Made by a program: the position numbers and the translations under genes
Notes under the pieces: generated by a model
What the model saw: the letters and a program-made list of their open reading frames with translations, nothing else
Databases searched by the model: none
Told to the model about the DNA's origin: nothing
Assembly (NCBI GenBank): GCA_945937855.1
Contig: CAMEUC010000001.1
Span: 1-59,394 of the forward strand
Reading direction: 5' to 3'
Origin: an uncultured Clostridium sp.
GTDB taxonomy: Bacteria > Bacillota > Clostridia > TANB77 > CAG-508
DNA: 59,394 nucleotides
Part shown: positions 3,001 through 57,087 of the stretch, piece after piece
How the letters are laid out: each line of letters starts with the position of its first letter
Numbering within the stretch: the stretch's first letter is position 1

Positions 3001-5614
3001 ATTTAATGGATTAAAAACATTTGCTAGCTGGGATGGTGGAGACTTGTTCTCTAGTGATAGTAAACCTGTTGAAACATCTATTAAATTTAGTGGTTCAGGA
3101 ATAGATACAAAGAGTTTGGGAGCTGGTATTAAAGATGCTGGAACAGCATTAAAAAATAATGCAGATACTTTAGCCGCGCAATGGACTCCAATTCAACCAA
3201 ATTTACTTAATAAAAAAACTAATGGTGGAAAAACTGGAGGATTAAATAATGGCGGTGGAGGCTCTAAAAAAGGTTCAGGTTCAGAATATTCAGCAGAAGA
3301 TGCAGCATCTGACCTTAAAGACATTCTTCAAGACATCGAAGATTATGAAGCAGATATTGAGTTAGACCTTGAAGACCAAACAGAGCAATTAATAAATCAA
3401 TATAATTTAAAAAAGAATCAATTAGATGCACTTAAAGAAGAGTTAGATTATTATGATAGTATTTATGATGTTACAGAAAATACTACAAAATGGTTAGATA
3501 CTCAATTAAAGATACTAGATGAAGAATCTAAAAAAGTTGCAGAGATACAAAATGCAAATGATAAGATTGATAAACAAAGACAAAAAATATATAATGAAAA
3601 TTCTAAATATAATGTACAATCTTGGTTTGATAGCGAAGGAAATGAGACTTTAGCATATGGAAATTTATTAAATTCTTTTGAATATCGTAAAAACGAAATA
3701 GAAAAAGAGACTGCTGCTGCAATGCGTGCAGAGTATAATAAAGTTGCAAATAGTACAGATAAAGATACTATTAGCGCAGCAAAAGACAGAATTAAACAAA
3801 TTGAAAAAGATGGCGACATCAAGATAAAAGCTATTGATAAAGAACGCGATAAAGTTGAAAATATTTATGATAGCGTTAGTCAATTAAATGATGCTTGGAA
3901 AGAAAACCAAGAGGCTATTAGAGAAGCACTTCAAGAGTTAAATGATAAAGTTAAATCAATTCGTGATGAATTAATTGATGATATTATGGAACAACTTGAA
4001 CGTGCTGTAGACAAGATGAATACAAGTATTGAGAAAGATGTTACTAGATTAGAACAACTTAAACAAGTTCAAGAATCATATAATGATATTTTAAATGATG
4101 CAATAGATACACAACAAGAACTTGAAGATGAGTTAAAAGCTAATATGGACTCTTATCAATACCTTGATGATACAATGCGTCAATTAATGTTCAATGAAGA
4201 TGATTATAAGCAATTAAGTGGAGTTATTGAAAGAATTCAATCTGATATTGCAGGTATTTGGGAAGACCACTATAATCAAATTCAAAACTTAACAGAAGAT
4301 GAAATGTATAAGGCAGAGTACATAACAAATGAAACAGAAAGACAGCTTGCTGCTAAACAAAAAGAATATGACCTTGCTAAAGCAGAATTAGATGTTGCGA
4401 AAGCACAAACAAATTTGAATAATGTAAAGAACGAAAGAAACACAAGAATATTTGCTAATGGAGAATGGCAGTGGGTTGCAAATCCAGATGACGTTAAATC
4501 AGCACAACAACAATTGATGGAAGCCGAACGTGAAAAAACAAGATTGGAACGTGAAGCTGAACAACAATTATTAATAGATGCAATGGATAAAATGATAGAT
4601 TCAGATAACCTTCAAATTGACAAAAATAATGAATTGTTAGAAAACATTCAAGATGCAATAGAAAAAGAAACAGAAGAAGTTAAATCAATTGAAGAAGCTT
4701 TGTTAAATGCAGATAAAGCAAATCTACCAGCATTAACTACAACATTAATTGGAGCATTAGGCTCTGATGGCGGATATATGAAAGAATTACTTGGAGAAAT
4801 TAATCATTCTCAAGTAGAACTTGCTGCCGCTTTAAGAGGGCAAACAGTGCAACAAGCTATTGACCAATTAAAATCAGGAACAATGAGCCAATCAGAATTT
4901 GAAGAATTAACAAAAAGATTAGGATTTTCATTCAATCCTACAACTGGAATGGTAACAACTCAAGATGGAAGTTTTGCTGCTCATTATAAAGGATGGGTTA
5001 AAAAATCAAATAGTGATACTCAACTAGGAACTGCTGCAAACGGAGTACAAGTTACTGGAGGTCAAGCTGGTTCTGGACAAGCAAATGCTGCAACGTCTGG
5101 TGGCAATGGAGGAGGAAGTTCTTTCCCAAGAAATGGTAGAGTAACTACAAGCTCATTACCATTAAGAATCCGTTCAGGTGCTGGTACACAATATAAAATT
5201 CTTGGAACTATGCCAAAAGGTGCCAATGTTACTATTTTAGGTGAAGCTAATAGTGGTTGGGCACAAGTTAGATATGGTGGTATTACTGGATATGCAAGCA
5301 GACAATATTTACATTATGACCAAGGTGGAATTGCAAGTGGTATAGGATATATGCCAAAAGCTACATTAAAACCAGAACGTGTATTATCACCAAGACAAAC
5401 AAAAGCATTTGAAAAATTAGTAAATAATATTACAACAAATCCTGTATTAAATGCTTTAAGTAGAATCCCAAGTGTAAATTCAAAATTGGGAAATTTAGCA
5501 GGAGAAACAAATAATAGTAAAAATTATTACTTTAGTAATTTTACAGTTCAAGCAGATGATATTCAACAATTTATAAATAGTATTGAAACAATAATGCCTA
5601 TAAATAACAAATAG
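1..5614 (+). CDS. Tail tape measure protein (5' end outside the window) with a C-terminal SH3b-like module
   Basis: The frame is open from nt 2 (LDEVASKWKNFDQTKQSQIATAIAGVRQQENFRAL...), so the track start at 104 (TTG) is not the true start. The protein exceeds 1830 aa. It has hydrophobic segments (VAGVLTLFITVLGII, ILLVVAAIAAIAVAI), a very long K/E/Q-rich coiled-coil body and Gly-rich linkers. It lies directly upstream of the tail genes. Confidence 0.85.
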   Translation, partial: LDEVASKWKNFDQTKQSQIATAIAGVRQQENFRALMNNYDEVGRLAGVAADSTGSASKRMETYLDSVEAKTNNLKAAWENFVMSLNQSESYKSFLDMLTNLLDKLQYVDWKSVAGVLTLFITVLGIIKATKGITTLITAIKEFKGLSSLAGIFSSKILLVVAAIAAIAVAINSINTNFDKQIADIDKRVDSINKEKEAVEEDKKSVQELYNEYQNLQSKQQLSGLDTSEKQRMAEVTKELVEQYGFEYSAVDSLNGGYVLATDALTKYMEAKEKQLKQLDEEERKSKIEKVAKQIKKQNSNIKAKGASENLTNLGFGFEQAKNELDAVGFFGSLGLEWNAYKYAFGNWGNGNFFDNYDKELQRQYKEKVGEFEDNIVEGWDEITSGIVDTLAPAIESSGLSDRFTELFTAQVKAGIKNVDTSKLETDESVEKLIKSYEKLLSQPEIKNYSNELDKKLTEFETKISDKNAHMSLQDYKDYNDALEKQASLSITLLSNMIGIDKAKDIVSKSLNQQLANSGSYFALLSDQIKKDFGEDSQVVKNFDNIAGSIININKQLADGQIDVKNYFNLIKNEIDSIDTKKLEDSFGNIGNYLATMGQIANSSGGQLQTIITNMQQGKKLNNEGVDDIKSYVGILGMVKNSTKKHMTDENGNYKIFKDTKGNDYDSRQLFEDTSGTNQSTVTNLQKQQSSLQEKINNLNAQISALNKAKNGETVPSDMNVKTSTSDNKSVYNRSVQQPSISDSNIKLASKPVQQTSKITGNDPIKGLQVSDDDILDRIAAINKGQDETANKAKAIKEINELIAQKQKELNKLKEKDTGITEDIEKEQKKVNKGMDSYLDDMEKGVSFLDRYDWDNLDKASDTLFQGFADGAFNANSTIDNVEENYKNAALSMADAFIDMTSQSNEAFTSLGENVQTQLQNISAETLKQIGLTSEATNTEIANAMLQSQSNFNAVVGAMNKNAQTALSEVLKGAGGMLEALGAAIESFTGEIKISIGGIRFNGLKTFASWDGGDLFSSDSKPVETSIKFSGSGIDTKSLGAGIKDAGTALKNNADTLAAQWTPIQPNLLNKKTNGGKTGGLNNGGGGSKKGSGSEYSAEDAASDLKDILQDIEDYEADIELDLEDQTEQLINQYNLKKNQLDALKEELDYYDSIYDVTENTTKWLDTQLKILDEESKKVAEIQNANDKIDKQRQKIYNENSKYNVQSWFDSEGNETLAYGNLLNSFEYRKNEIEKETAAAMRAEYNKVANSTDKDTISAAKDRIKQIEKDGDIKIKAIDKERDKVENIYDSVSQLNDAWKENQEAIREALQELNDKVKSIRDELIDDIMEQLERAVDKMNTSIEKDVTRLEQLKQVQESYNDILNDAIDTQQELEDELKANMDSYQYLDDTMRQLMFNEDDYKQLSGVIERIQSDIAGIWEDHYNQIQNLTEDEMYKAEYITNETERQLAAKQKEYDLAKAELDVAKAQTNLNNVKNERNTRIFANGEWQWVANPDDVKSAQQQLMEAEREKTRLEREAEQQLLIDAMDKMIDSDNLQIDKNNELLENIQDAIEKETEEVKSIEEALLNADKANLPALTTTLIGALGSDGGYMKELLGEINHSQVELAAALRGQTVQQAIDQLKSGTMSQSEFEELTKRLGFSFNPTTGMVTTQDGSFAAHYKGWVKKSNSDTQLGTAANGVQVTGGQAGSGQANAATSGGNGGGSSFPRNGRVTTSSLPLRIRSGAGTQYKILGTMPKGANVTILGEANSGWAQVRYGGITGYASRQYLHYDQGGIASGIGYMPKATLKPERVLSPRQTKAFEKLVNNITTNPVLNALSRIPSVNSKLGNLAGETNNSKNYYFSNFTVQADDIQQFINSIETIMPINNK

Positions 5615-21890: not shown

Positions 21891-21919
21891 ATTATACCAC
21901 ACTGACAACTAGTTGTCAA
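21891..21919 (-). promoter_or_regulatory. Consensus sigma-70-type promoter overlapping the operator palindrome TGACAACTAGTTGTCA (21903-21918)
   Basis: The minus strand reads TTGACA (21919-21914), a 17-nt spacer, then TATAAT (21896-21891). The upstream extension is TTTCTATCTAAC. Confidence 0.75.
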
Positions 21920-49088: not shown

Positions 49089-51343
49089 TATATCTCCTTT
49101 CCACCATTTTTTATAAATTCATCTCTTTCAGTTATAATATCTGTTATTATATCATAACTTCCAGATTTTCCTCCATTAGGATATTTTTCTTTTAAATACC
49201 CTAAGAAATAATTTTCAACTGGAGTTAATAAGGAGCCAGTGAATTTATTTGTATGAGTTGGATTTTTCATATATGCGTTTAATACCCATCTTAAAGATTT
49301 CCAAGTTGTATAATAATGAAGTTTATATTTAAACATAAATCCTTCTATATCTTCTACAACAAAACCTTCAATATATTCTCCGTTATATTTGAAATCATCC
49401 TTTTGTACATCTCCATTTAAAGTTAAAAATTCTTGTATATTATTTACTTCATAACATAATTCTTTTACTTTAATATTATTTCTATCTCCAAAAGCTTTAA
49501 GATGCTCATATTTTACTTTTTTAAAATCAATAGTGTTATAAATCATATCAAGTAAAATAAGGTCTTGACTATCATATTTGATAATATGGGGGTCATTAAT
49601 TGGGTCAATAACTTCAAATACCATAGTAATATCTTCTTTACTAAATCTTTCTTTGATTGCCGCAATTTGATTTTCGTTATATGTTCTATAAAAAATATTT
49701 TTAAAATATTCAACGTGCTCTCCAGAATTAGAAGATTTTGAACAGAAATATAATTCTCCATCTTTTATACTTAATATTCCTAAGAATCCATTATATTTTT
49801 TATAGAATCTTACAGGGAACTTTAAGTTTTGTACTAAATACCCAAATCGAGTTTCTTCTCTTTCCTCTTTATTAAAAAACTTATTATAACTTCTAGCTTG
49901 GATTTTTTCTTTTTCAATATTTATGAATAATCCTCTTGCCTGAGTTGTAATACCATTCCAGATTCCTTTTTCAAAAGCGTTTCTTGTAAAATTAAATGCA
50001 GAAATTCCATCTCCTAACATTTTTTCTTGGATATATTTACAATTTCTTAACTCTTGAATGAACATTCCCATATTATCAATGCGACTATGTATAATTCCAT
50101 CTGGAGCATTATTCCTTTGTTCAACAAGTTCTTTACTAAATACTTCATTTTTTATTTCTACTGGAGAAAAACTTCCATCATTTAATATTCTTAATACTCT
50201 TAATTCTCCGCCAAATTCAATTTTTCCTTCTAAATTATAAGAATATTCTGTATTGATTAATGGATGTAAAAAAGTATTTCTGTGTCCGTGAACTTGATAT
50301 ATTGGATGCTTTCTTGTTTTATTTTCTTCTTGTGCCCAATTATTAAATATATTATCTATATCATCATCATAAGTTCCAACACCTTTAATAAAGTTAATTC
50401 CAGCATAGAAATCCATAGATTGTTTCGGCATATATGAGATTCCTCCGTGAGATATTATAAAGTCATTACCTCTGAATGTGATATACGCTGCAACACCCAA
50501 TTTTCTATAAAACTGACGTAAATCTGAATTTTCTATTCCTGCTTCTGCAAATTGGATAGCAGTCTTATTTAAAAATTCTTTACTCTTTACTGGCATTCCA
50601 TAAGCATAATCTCTAAGTGCATATTCGTGGTTGCCCATTAACATTAATACGTTTGGTCTTTGAATTAAATCATTAACTAATCCAAAAGTATTTACATTCT
50701 CAATTCCTCTATCAAAATAATCTCCAACAAAAATATATCCATCTTTTTCTGAAAAAGGATTTTGTTTAAAATATGTGTCTAAGGCAGTATAACATCCGTG
50801 AATATCTCCGAAAATATGTATATTCTCATAATCATTCCAATCATATGGTTCTATTGTTAATATTTTTTCAAACTCATCTGGTTTAACTACTGTAAATCCT
50901 GAAGTTTTACCTTGTGTTGCAAACCTAGAATATACTTTATCTATTTCTGATTCTGGAACCTGTTTGTATTCTGGTCTTCCAGCATTTCTTTCTTTAGCAA
51001 CTTCAATTGGAATATCTGTAAAGTCTACACAATATAATCTATAACGATATTGGTCAGCTAAAGCTTTATATTTTGAGAACTCTGAACTTTTACTATGTAC
51101 TGCATCAATAATTGTAAATTCTCCATATTTCATACGTTCTTCTAAAAAATAGAATAACATATCCCAAGCCTGTTTATTTTCTGTTTGTGAAATACAATCC
51201 TTTCCATTAATTCCTATTCTAGGAGCAGTAAGATGCAATCTCATTGTATCAGCACAGAGAGTATATTTTTCTAAATCGTGTTCTTTAAGCCAAGTAGATT
51301 TTCCACATCCCATTGAGCCTCTAAGTATCACTAATTTCCTCAT
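49088..51343 (-). CDS. Trifunctional polynucleotide kinase / metallophosphatase / ligase-like protein (bacterial Pnkp-type RNA repair enzyme)
   Basis: P-loop kinase MRKLVILRGSMGCGKST. Calcineurin-type phosphoesterase motifs GDIHGC, GDYFDRG, GNHE and VHGHRN. C-terminal nucleotidyltransferase motifs KKYNGF (KxxG), EGFVVED and FMFKYK. The start is taken at an ATG just after GGAG; the track start at 51373 overlaps an operator. Confidence 0.7.
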   Translation of the reverse strand: MRKLVILRGSMGCGKSTWLKEHDLEKYTLCADTMRLHLTAPRIGINGKDCISQTENKQAWDMLFYFLEERMKYGEFTIIDAVHSKSSEFSKYKALADQYRYRLYCVDFTDIPIEVAKERNAGRPEYKQVPESEIDKVYSRFATQGKTSGFTVVKPDEFEKILTIEPYDWNDYENIHIFGDIHGCYTALDTYFKQNPFSEKDGYIFVGDYFDRGIENVNTFGLVNDLIQRPNVLMLMGNHEYALRDYAYGMPVKSKEFLNKTAIQFAEAGIENSDLRQFYRKLGVAAYITFRGNDFIISHGGISYMPKQSMDFYAGINFIKGVGTYDDDIDNIFNNWAQEENKTRKHPIYQVHGHRNTFLHPLINTEYSYNLEGKIEFGGELRVLRILNDGSFSPVEIKNEVFSKELVEQRNNAPDGIIHSRIDNMGMFIQELRNCKYIQEKMLGDGISAFNFTRNAFEKGIWNGITTQARGLFINIEKEKIQARSYNKFFNKEEREETRFGYLVQNLKFPVRFYKKYNGFLGILSIKDGELYFCSKSSNSGEHVEYFKNIFYRTYNENQIAAIKERFSKEDITMVFEVIDPINDPHIIKYDSQDLILLDMIYNTIDFKKVKYEHLKAFGDRNNIKVKELCYEVNNIQEFLTLNGDVQKDDFKYNGEYIEGFVVEDIEGFMFKYKLHYYTTWKSLRWVLNAYMKNPTHTNKFTGSLLTPVENYFLGYLKEKYPNGGKSGSYDIITDIITERDEFIKNGGKEI

Positions 51344-51356
51344 CATTTCTCCTTTC

Positions 51357-51372
51357 TGACAAATATTTGTCA
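51357..51372 (-). promoter_or_regulatory. Operator palindrome TGACAAATATTTGTCA abutting the RBS of the Pnkp-like gene
   Basis: A perfect 16-bp palindrome with no matching -10 box downstream. Confidence 0.5.
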
Positions 51373-51398
51373 ATAATGGTTTAAAAAATAATAAATAT

Positions 51399-55597: not shown

Positions 55598-55835
55598 AAT
55601 ATTCTCCAAAAAATAAAATTTAGGAATGACAGTATATATATCGTTTTATTATTTATCTCTAACCGAGTAGGTTATATTAGTGACTATCATTCCTAGTTAC
55701 ATAAGGTGGGTTTAACATAAAATACAATCCTCCTTATTTTTGAGAAAAAATCGAAAAATTTACTTTCTAAAACCCTTGTGGCTCTAGGAGTTTAAATTTG
55801 ATAAAATTCAGATTTTATTCTCAACTTCTATATAT

Positions 55836-55864
55836 ATTATACCATACTGACAAGTATTTGTCAA
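55836..55864 (-). promoter_or_regulatory. Consensus sigma-70-type promoter overlapping the operator palindrome TGACAAGTATTTGTCA (55848-55863)
   Basis: The minus strand reads TTGACA (55864-55859), 17 nt, then TATAAT (55841-55836). The upstream extension is TTTCTACCTAAC. Confidence 0.75.
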
Positions 55865-55880
55865 GTTAGGTAGAAAATCA

Positions 55881-55912
55881 TAAAAGAAAAGGTAAGATGC
55901 TTACATCTTACC
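55881..55912 (-). terminator. Rho-independent terminator ending the RNA-gene transcription unit
   Basis: On the minus strand, GGTAAGATG-TAAG-CATCTTACC is followed by TTTTCTTTT. Confidence 0.75.
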
Positions 55913-56398
55913 TTAACCACACGTTAACTGTGCTATTTTTATAAGCACATTGAAGTATTAAATTATTTTGACATTTTATGGGTTTATACATAACTGTATA
56001 AGGATGTTGAAATGTATTTACCATTTAAAATTTAATACTTCAATCTACTTATAAAAAATTTATAAAAGGCTGAGAACTTGACCTTCTAAAATGGGTATTG
56101 ATATTGGTTGGACAATATTGTTCACACATCCTATTTCTAAAATGTACCCATCGTACACACGACTTTTGAGAAATGTCGTCAAATCTTACTAGGTAGCTCA
56201 TATCTTTCATTTCATATATGTAACCTCTTGGATTTGAGTTCATAGTATCCCTACTATTATTGACATAACTACTTTTACTGGATTTAATTTCACTTTGCGA
56301 GTTCCATTAATCTTCATATTACAGAAGAATAAGTGTACTTTTGCTATCCCAGTGGCAACCACTTTTGCTAATATATACTTTACCATATTTGCAGTATG
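55913..56398 (-). other. Non-coding 3' segment of the RNA transcription unit, with a long-range 15-bp inverted repeat
   Basis: There is no ORF with a credible RBS. The perfect repeat TTGAAGTATTAAATT (55950-55964) / AATTTAATACTTCAA (56029-56043) encloses the smaller hairpin TATACA-TAAC-TGTATA. Confidence 0.3.
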
Positions 56399-56470
56399 TG
56401 CGAGTTACAGGATTCGAACCTGTGATATAATCTTTATCATAGATTTGCCTTACCTCTTGGCTAAATTCGC
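56399..56470 (-). tRNA. tRNA-Ile (anticodon GAU), CCA not encoded
   Basis: Minus strand: GCGAATT TA GCC AAGAGGTAA GGC A AATCT ATGATAA AGATT ATATC ACAGG TTCGAAT CCTGT AACTCGC A. This is a 72-nt cloverleaf with U8, A14, G18G19, U33, a T-loop TTCGAAT and one A-C mismatch in the acceptor stem. Confidence 0.75.
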
Positions 56471-56960
56471 TATTATCCATTTGACATATGAGGGTTGCCT
56501 TTGGACATCTATCTCTTTTGGAGACAGCCCATCCATCATACATCTACCGTCGGTTCTAACTGAACCTTAGCTCTTATACTCTGCTGGGTCAAACACTTGA
56601 GAAACTCAAGCTAACCATTAATCCATACCCTTTCAGGCTCAGGAAACAGCGCACTTCGTCTATACAGCAATAATCTTTGTTATCGGATTTTTTACCATAT
56701 ATCAATAAATCTATTATTGGCTTTCACCTCACTCAGGTTGGATAGACCCTCGACATATCTTACATATACTCAAAGACTCCTTCGTTGTATGTAAGCAAGA
56801 CGTTTCATTATTGGCTTTCTGTGGATAGTATCCATTCTTAGGAGTGGTAATACTACGCAAGTAAATTTAATTACTCACTTTATACTGTCACCAGTTTATC
56901 CTTAAAGTTCCGAAGCCGAACTTTTTATATATAACATTTTTCAATGTACTTTTTAACTAT
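56471..56960 (-). ncRNA. Candidate large structured non-coding RNA (about 490 nt) immediately 5' of the tRNA
   Basis: Perfect promoters lie upstream (56967-56995 and 57088-57116), and there is no credible ORF. The region is visibly more GC-rich than its flanks. Many local helices occur in the minus-strand sense: AAAGUUCG-GCUU-CGGAACUUU, CCU-GAAA-GGG, CUUGAG-UUU-CUCAAG, GGUUC-AGUUA-GAACC, and CUUACAUA...UAUGUAAG. Confidence 0.5.
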
Positions 56961-56966
56961 GTATCT

Positions 56967-56995
56967 ATTATACCATATTATAAAAGATTTGTCAA
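56967..56995 (-). promoter_or_regulatory. Consensus sigma-70-type promoter (proximal promoter of the RNA locus)
   Basis: The minus strand reads TTGACA (56995-56990), then AATCTTTTATAATATGG (17 nt), then TATAAT (56972-56967). Confidence 0.7.
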
Positions 56996-57087
56996 GTTAT
57001 TTGGAAAATTTTTTAAATTTTTTAGGTAATCTGTGATGAAGTACTATTTCTAGCACTTACATCACCAATGAACAAATCTATATCTAT

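Follow-up and report, generated by a model that had tools for sequence, protein, structure and literature searches.

A divergent GOLLD RNA carrying a tRNA-Ile gene in its linker, encoded by a large AT-rich phage

Results

Gene content and transcription signals

The window, by which we mean the whole 59,394-nt stretch analysed here, comes from contig CAMEUC010000001.1 of an uncultured Clostridium sp. Its genes include those for a DNA polymerase, NrdD, helicases, a RecJ-like nuclease, a polynucleotide kinase (PNK)/RNA ligase and an endolysin, together with a tmRNA; this content bears out the phage setting, with an adjoining tRNA, that a first-pass annotation had proposed from the nucleotides alone. 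The tmRNA (58022-58377; 135 bits in Rfam; tag ANEELVAA) lies ~1.5 kb upstream of the RNA that is the subject of this report, a GOLLD RNA encoded by a large AT-rich phage. The 761-aa product of 49088-51373 (minus strand) has matches in the phage RNA ligase and polynucleotide kinase/phosphatase families, that is, it is an enzyme of the tRNA-repair type. A megablast search of phage genomes with 20 kb of the window returned no match; the phage itself is absent from that collection.

The annotation had singled out positions 56471-56960, read on the minus strand, as a structured non-coding RNA that runs directly into a tRNA-Ile gene. A tRNA-Ile(GAU) does begin immediately after this interval (56398-56470, minus strand; 63.5 bits; no CCA encoded), and the signals that were said to frame the transcript are present as well. 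Two perfect consensus promoters stand in tandem on the minus strand: the upstream promoter P1 at 57116-57088 (TTGACA-17-TATAAT with a TGn extension) and the proximal promoter P2 at 56995-56967, a perfect extended -10 promoter of the sigma-70 type, again TTGACA-17-TATAAT, which is kept at the same place in four relatives described below (L015, L030, L037 and L048). Judging from the position of the proximal promoter, transcription would start at ~56960. The strong terminator that the annotation placed roughly 480 nt beyond the tRNA is an intrinsic terminator at 55914-55889 (minus strand; 11-bp stem, 4-nt loop and T-run), 484-509 nt past the tRNA. The GC content is also higher than in the surroundings, as had been noted, reaching 0.35-0.415 over 56300-56900 compared with ~0.25 in the flanks.

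The spacer between the tandem promoters (56996-57082, minus strand) contains a 14-bp hairpin with a GAAA loop and a z-score of -3.92, which may lie outside the GOLLD RNA; in relatives this position is occupied by tRNA genes (Phe, Cys and Lys in L015). Just inside the predicted start is a leader hairpin, ACAUU-GAAAA-AUGU (56934-56947, minus strand), that is conserved among the closest relatives. Perfect extended promoters number eight across the window, all of them on the minus strand, against 0.1 expected by chance. These near-identical TTGACA-N14-TGN-TATAAT elements stand at 21891, 28754, 37957, 46992, 51943, 55836, 56967 and 57088, and several have a palindromic spacer, TTGACAA.T..TTGTCA, which could be an operator.

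Comparison with Rfam

When the whole window was searched at Rfam gathering thresholds, only tRNA and tmRNA were reported; GOLLD surfaced only in E-value mode on a 1.6-kb slice (55700-57300), searched with Rfam 15 models and permissive filters at E<=10. There, the GOLLD model RF02032 matches 56544-56067 on the minus strand from end to end (model positions 1-416) with 61.5 bits and E 3.9e-15, the hit carrying a composition bias term of 21. The tRNA-Ile is modelled as a linker insert between the first model hairpin and the 3' core. The score falls well short of the RF02032 gathering score of 150 bits, a cut-off of Rfam curation and not a structural feature, because the 73-nt tRNA insert and the divergence of the clade lower it. 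The published criterion for GOLLD membership is E<1e-5 (PMC12286853), and the full-length match lies far below that value. Since this match spans the tRNA, the sequence past the tRNA constitutes the half that defines the family, and the flagged interval corresponds to what comes before the linker. The ~480 nt past the tRNA are not a trailer but the conserved half of the same GOLLD RNA, a point that the annotation missed.

The first-pass annotation had named ROOL and GOLLD as candidate classes and had advised running the models for both, together with those for HEARO, RNase P and group I/II introns. Across 55700-57300, only tRNA and GOLLD were significant, and ROOL, HEARO, RNase P and group I/II introns had no match at E<=10. 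The GOLLD half of the suggestion therefore stands, on the E-value of 3.9e-15, and the ROOL half falls away. A phage context with an adjoining tRNA would by itself suit the idea that the interval belongs to another known large RNA, whether ROOL, HEARO, RNase P or a group I/II intron, but the silence of all these models under permissive filters leaves that idea with a negligible probability.

Divergent relatives in gut phages

Relatives were found by DNA-pattern scans of viral, metagenome and genome collections, and are given locus numbers prefixed with L. A scan with the 16-mer GGTCAAGTTCTCAGCC returned 24 loci, only ~9 of which are true homologues by nhmmer. Four loci (L029, L039, L046 and L049) are chance matches of a gapped 3' pattern and are not GOLLD. 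BLAST against phage genomes matched only the Lak megaphages, with 69% identity over the 3' core.

The homologues can be described as three sets. A close clade carries a tRNA in the linker, either tRNA-Ile(GAU), as in L015 (identical to L036), L030 and L037, or tRNA-Asn(GUU), as in L048, a Clostridiaceae MAG contig, and L028. More distant loci (L020, L032, L031 and L019) have no linker tRNA and score 101.6-119.7 bits on RF02032 (E 1e-25 to 1e-31), the same range as the published members CcrBL9 (119.1 bits) and Bajun (104 bits), both of which are in the published GOLLD alignment; canonical GOLLDs score 217.6 (P577), 216.4 (PegLeg), 189.9 (PG07) and 165.3 bits (phiCbK). The third set, likewise without a linker tRNA, comprises the Lak megaphages (L001-L003 and others). 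Homology of the 3' core in tRNA-less relatives is found by nhmmer with E 1e-17 to 1e-24.

In the larger Rfam searches, RF02032 was reported neither for the close clade, including the closest tRNA-bearing relatives (L015, L030 and L048), nor for the Lak phages. These missing hits are probably a loss at the filters, and given that Rfam is silent here, homology was established by nhmmer and alignment instead. The Lak megaphages, that is, the Prevotella phages Lak-A2, B1 and C1 and related contigs, encode a complete GOLLD-like RNA of ~860 nt with a P1-P3 block, a UCAAAAG hairpin and the 3' end UCUCAGCCA, on which RF02032 is silent even at E<=1. The loci concerned are L001 (~960-1820), L003 (~955-1818), L013, L014, L016, L018 and L041-L044. 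In the literature searched, no paper names both 'GOLLD' and 'megaphage'.

The GOLLDs of the relatives sit in tRNA arrays with tmRNA. A tmRNA accompanies GOLLD in L020, L030, L048, PegLeg, Bajun and phiCbK, and it takes the permuted form in Bajun and phiCbK.

The 3' core

The conserved 3' core occupies 56369-56067 on the minus strand, from AGCAAAAGUG to the 3'-terminal UCUCAGCCU, and corresponds to RF02032 positions ~128-416. Using 18 distinct sequences, RNAalifold resolves 62 pairs in 12 helices, with 98.6% of cells paired. Changes on both sides affect 44/62 pairs, compared with 7-12 when the partners are shifted, and the covariation score of 0.709 contrasts with 0.07-0.12 when they are shifted by 1-3 columns. 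The locus ends in GUUCUCAGCCU at 56077-56067; env-38, the GOLLD for which a cryo-EM structure is available (PMC12286853), terminates in UAUUCUCAGCCU.

Beyond the core lies a tail module (55936-56057, minus strand) in which the arms of a 29-nt inverted repeat (93% complementary) enclose an insert of 64 nt. L048 has the module too, with a different insert; L015, L030 and L037 lack it, and their terminator comes within ~50 nt of the core. The module could be an additional hairpin or else a small element that has been inserted.

The 5' domain and the P14 hairpin

The flagged interval contains a GOLLD 5' domain (56925-56545, minus strand) followed by a single hairpin, and many of the helices and loops that had been read from the minus-strand sequence are recognizable in it. 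Helix P1 (56923-56905) has the UUCG-like loop GGCUUCG, helix P2 (56895-56884) has the GNRA loop GUGA, and another hairpin (56728-56719) has a GAAA loop; helix P3 lies at 56878-56857, and further covarying helices follow. P2 is embedded in a block, AGGAUAAA-P2(GUGA loop)-UAUAAAGUG at 56902-56876, which is shared with GOLLDs above the gathering score. The interval then closes with the A-rich-loop hairpin (UCAAAAG) that stands directly before the variable linker. This pre-linker hairpin (56544-56483, minus strand) is P14/L14 of env-38; it has a conserved CAAAA loop, covaries, and occupies positions 1-63 of the Rfam GOLLD model.

Single-sequence folding of the interval is only mildly better than that of shuffled sequences (z -2.13 for the minus strand, -0.95 for the plus strand), so the case for structure rests on comparative data. 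For the 5' domain and P14, six sequences give 11 helices comprising 74 pairs, with 96.3% of cells paired; 33/74 pairs change on both sides, as against 4-8 when partners are shifted by 1-3 columns. The collection of homologous loci for covariation that the annotation had called for has thus produced covarying pairs in both halves of the RNA. Invariant G-U pairs in the 5' domain would be A-C on the other strand, and therefore fix the minus-strand orientation. A wider 5'-domain alignment of 13 sequences, including Lak, is too divergent in its middle, and RNAalifold retained only P2, P14 and a single small helix. The P3 helices of different subclades were misaligned by MAFFT.

These data bear directly on the view that the interval is a non-functional long leader or spacer of the tRNA, or else encodes a small protein. 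The modest z-score of the minus strand and the presence of short open reading frames (ORFs) are what such a view would predict. Against this, 33 pairs covary and the lengths of indels between relatives are not divisible by three; the interval itself contains ORFs of 25, 29, 38 and 43 aa, mostly with TTG starts, and no Shine-Dalgarno sequence is visible by eye, in keeping with the earlier statement that no ORF here has a ribosome-binding site. A 74-aa ORF and a 91-aa plus-strand ORF overlap the tRNA-proximal end of the interval, but both run across the tRNA, again with no Shine-Dalgarno sequence by eye. We regard a leader or a small coding sequence as very improbable.

How the 5' domain relates to accepted GOLLDs requires more care. 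A sequence-only nhmmer profile of the domain recovers the corresponding Lak domains (E 1e-10) as well as L031 (E 3e-10), and has no match in env-38 or P577. As the profile misses these canonical GOLLDs, 5' homology to them rests on short blocks and on the order of helices. A 20-nt block, GAUAAACUG-N4/5-CAGUAUAAAGU, equivalent to J1/2, P2 and J2/3, recurs without change in L056, L057 and Acinetobacter phage P577 (217.6 bits); the GOLLDs of all three score 213-218 bits. A viral scan with this block alone retrieved three further loci, namely the GOLLDs L056 and L057 and a locus with the same GOLLD layout (L058), and in each of the three the block lies ~300 nt before P14. L057, an Acinetobacter-phage-like contig, also has two group I introns (4731-5338; 79 and 97 bits) a few kb downstream of its canonical GOLLD and tRNA array. 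The homology of this domain to accepted GOLLDs is accordingly supported by the block and the order of elements, the middle of the domain falling outside the alignment to canonical members.

The failure of the sequence-only profile on env-38 and P577, and the fact that the Rfam model spans only P14 and the 3' part, would be expected if the interval were a new structured RNA class unrelated to GOLLD, whose position ahead of a tRNA and of an independent GOLLD-like 3' element would be fortuitous. Several observations contradict this. GOLLDs above the gathering score have an identical P2 block and are retrieved by a scan that uses nothing else; the order of elements is that of env-38; and P14, which is part of the Rfam model, sits within the interval. 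Moreover, in tRNA-less relatives (L020, L032 and Lak) nothing but a plain linker (~50-90 nt after P14) separates the same 5' domain from the 3' core, and the interval is therefore part of one RNA and not a separate gene. An unrelated class is accordingly very improbable in our estimation, if a little less so than a leader or coding sequence, and the annotation's suggestion of a possible new class lapses, both halves being tied to GOLLDs above the Rfam threshold.

We conclude, with a probability of about 90%, that 56471-56960 on the minus strand is the less conserved 5' domain, with P14, of one ~894-nt GOLLD RNA extending from 56960 to 56067. What was described initially as a large, structured, minus-strand non-coding RNA driven by consensus promoters is upheld in that respect, whereas the notion of a separate ~490-nt RNA fused to a tRNA gives way to that of a 5' domain and P14 within the longer molecule. 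Every structural feature of GOLLD that was open to testing was found at the locus, the Rfam bit-score cut-off being the only measure on which it fails.

The linker tRNA

The tRNA in the linker is Ile(GAU) in the window, L015, L030 and L037, and Asn(GUU) in L048 (~3103-3174) and L028 (~244-316 of the extract). Within the close clade the body of this tRNA is nearly constant while the middle base of the anticodon differs, which looks as though one gene had switched its anticodon by a single base. Compensatory changes are seen in the T-stem within the clade, and all clade members have an A-C mismatch in the acceptor stem. In the large ORFs of the window, AAT ranks second among codons by use (6.5%), and 4.2% of codons are ATT.

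Discussion

The locus described here is a new, divergent example of a known RNA class, with a tRNA-Ile gene in its flexible linker. The arrangement of a tRNA within the GOLLD linker is already in the literature and the locus reveals no new kind of RNA; two points are modestly new. The first is that standard Rfam annotation misses a whole clade of GOLLDs in AT-rich gut phages, including the complete GOLLD-like RNAs of Lak megaphages, and the second is the anticodon switch of the linker tRNA within the clade.

Signals in the sequence, together with homology to env-38, suggest how the RNA might be made and assembled. Host RNA polymerase of the sigma-70 type would start at ~56960 from the proximal promoter, with a second promoter 121 nt upstream, and would transcribe a single minus-strand unit consisting of the 5' domain (56925-56545), P14 (56544-56483), the linker with tRNA-Ile (56470-56398), the 3' core (56369-56067), an AT-rich tail and the terminator (55914-55889). 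The cryo-EM structure of env-38 is a 14-mer nanocage in which the variable linker faces inside, and its 5' and 3' domains form distinct bodies with few contacts between them (PMC12286853). By homology, the two domains of the present RNA would fold separately, and copies would assemble into a closed homo-oligomeric RNA cage with the 5' domains as its caps, the 3' domains as its ring and the linker directed into the cavity.

Folding and assembly of a cage at this locus, which we infer by homology, would be consistent with the elements that connect chains in env-38. There, the P2 GNRA loop makes contact B1 and the L14 adenines make contact B6 (PMC12286853); both elements are present at the locus, with approximate mapping of residues, and an invariant CGCAA loop may be a third such element, again mapped approximately. 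The mapping is approximate because the env-38 sequence used was a PDF transcription of 816 nt versus 833, with shifting offsets.

The fate of the linker tRNA matters to this model. Folded tRNAs within long precursors are substrates of RNase P. The compensatory changes in the T-stem, the anticodon switch and the heavy use of ATT and AAT codons favour a working tRNA under selection for decoding, which would therefore be excised, and we lean towards RNase P and RNase Z cutting it out as a working decoder. Excision would leave a two-piece GOLLD, with a 5' piece of ~490 nt and a 3' piece, whose halves would be held by tertiary contacts; an assembly in two pieces is plausible given that the domains of env-38 are separate bodies with few contacts. 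Retention of the tRNA in one 894-nt chain, tethered in the cage as cargo, decoy or structural module, is in our judgement the less probable fate. It would accord with the position of the env-38 linker inside the cage and with the suggestion of the authors of that structure that linker tRNAs could be encapsulated (PMC12286853), as well as with the acceptor-stem A-C mismatch common to all clade members and the maintenance of a tRNA at exactly this position both in the clade, as Ile or Asn, and in phiCbK, as Gly. Yet the tRNA scores 63.5 bits with an intact anticodon loop, its T-stem is compensated and its anticodon has switched to another heavily used codon family, as selection for decoding would predict, and its precursor is of the kind that RNase P cleaves.

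More tentatively still, we raise the doubtful proposal that the linker tRNA, Ile(GAU) or Asn(GUU), is a working and evolving molecule whose excision makes a two-piece cage, or that the cage holds or protects 14 copies of it. If true, either case would link GOLLD function to the supply or protection of tRNA during infection, alongside the tmRNA and the PNK/RNA-ligase repair enzyme.

GOLLD RNAs are among the largest bacterial and phage RNAs without a known function, and were recently shown to form an RNA-only cage. The present locus extends the class to a divergent clade in AT-rich gut phages, with Lak relatives, that standard Rfam annotation misses. The linker of this GOLLD holds tRNA-Ile in some phages, tRNA-Asn in others and no tRNA in still others, a natural series in which to ask whether linker cargo has a role in assembly or function.

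Among known systems, env-38 provides the closest structural guide. It shares with the locus (~820 nt without the tRNA) a less conserved 5' domain, a P14 whose loop is A-rich, a variable linker and a 3' core that ends in UCUCAGCCU. Both begin with the same order of elements, namely the P1 hairpin, AUAAA, a GNRA hairpin, AUAAAGUG (also given as GGAUAAAGUG) and a P3 closed by GUG/UGC, and the locus lies in a phage near tRNA and tmRNA genes. The two differ in that the primary sequence is very divergent, the locus scoring 61.5 bits and the sequence-only 5' profile missing env-38. The linker is ~115 nt with a tRNA at the locus and a disordered ~42 nt in env-38, and the locus has an extra tail of ~150 nt, with its 29-nt inverted repeat, before the terminator. 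The cage has been seen for env-38, whereas the locus is known here from sequence.

ROOL, which like GOLLD is a large ornate RNA of phages, lies near tRNA genes and builds a homo-oligomeric cage, is unrelated in sequence and fold, and the Rfam ROOL model has no match at the locus at E<=10. The GOLLD of Acinetobacter phage P577 (OR180307.1; 217.6 bits) has the identical 20-nt block GAUAAACUG..CAGUAUAAAGU at the start of the 5' domain and a CCUGAGU...GCAAUAAgAGA block that is similar by eye; in contrast to the locus it has no linker tRNA, tRNAs flanking the RNA instead, is shorter at ~740 nt and has CAAAA, not a GNRA sequence, as its P2 loop. The GOLLD-like RNAs of Lak and other gut phages (L001-L003, L019, L020, L031 and L032) come from the same AT-rich gut-phage setting and are homologous in both domains, with an nhmmer E of 1e-10 for the 5' domain and, in the Lak phages, a 3' core that is ~69% identical. 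They differ in having a linker without tRNA, and the Lak copies go unreported by Rfam. The nearest counterpart in architecture is the GOLLD of Caulobacter phage phiCbK (JX163858.1:105042-105528), which has a tRNA gene in the linker directly after P14. The annotated tRNA-Gly starts 65 nt into the phiCbK Rfam match and the tRNA-Ile 74 nt into that of the locus, and hence both occupy the same linker position, although the phiCbK tRNA is Gly(TCC) and not Ile(GAU), its host phage is a GC-rich alphaproteobacterial phage, and its score of 165.3 bits is above the gathering score.
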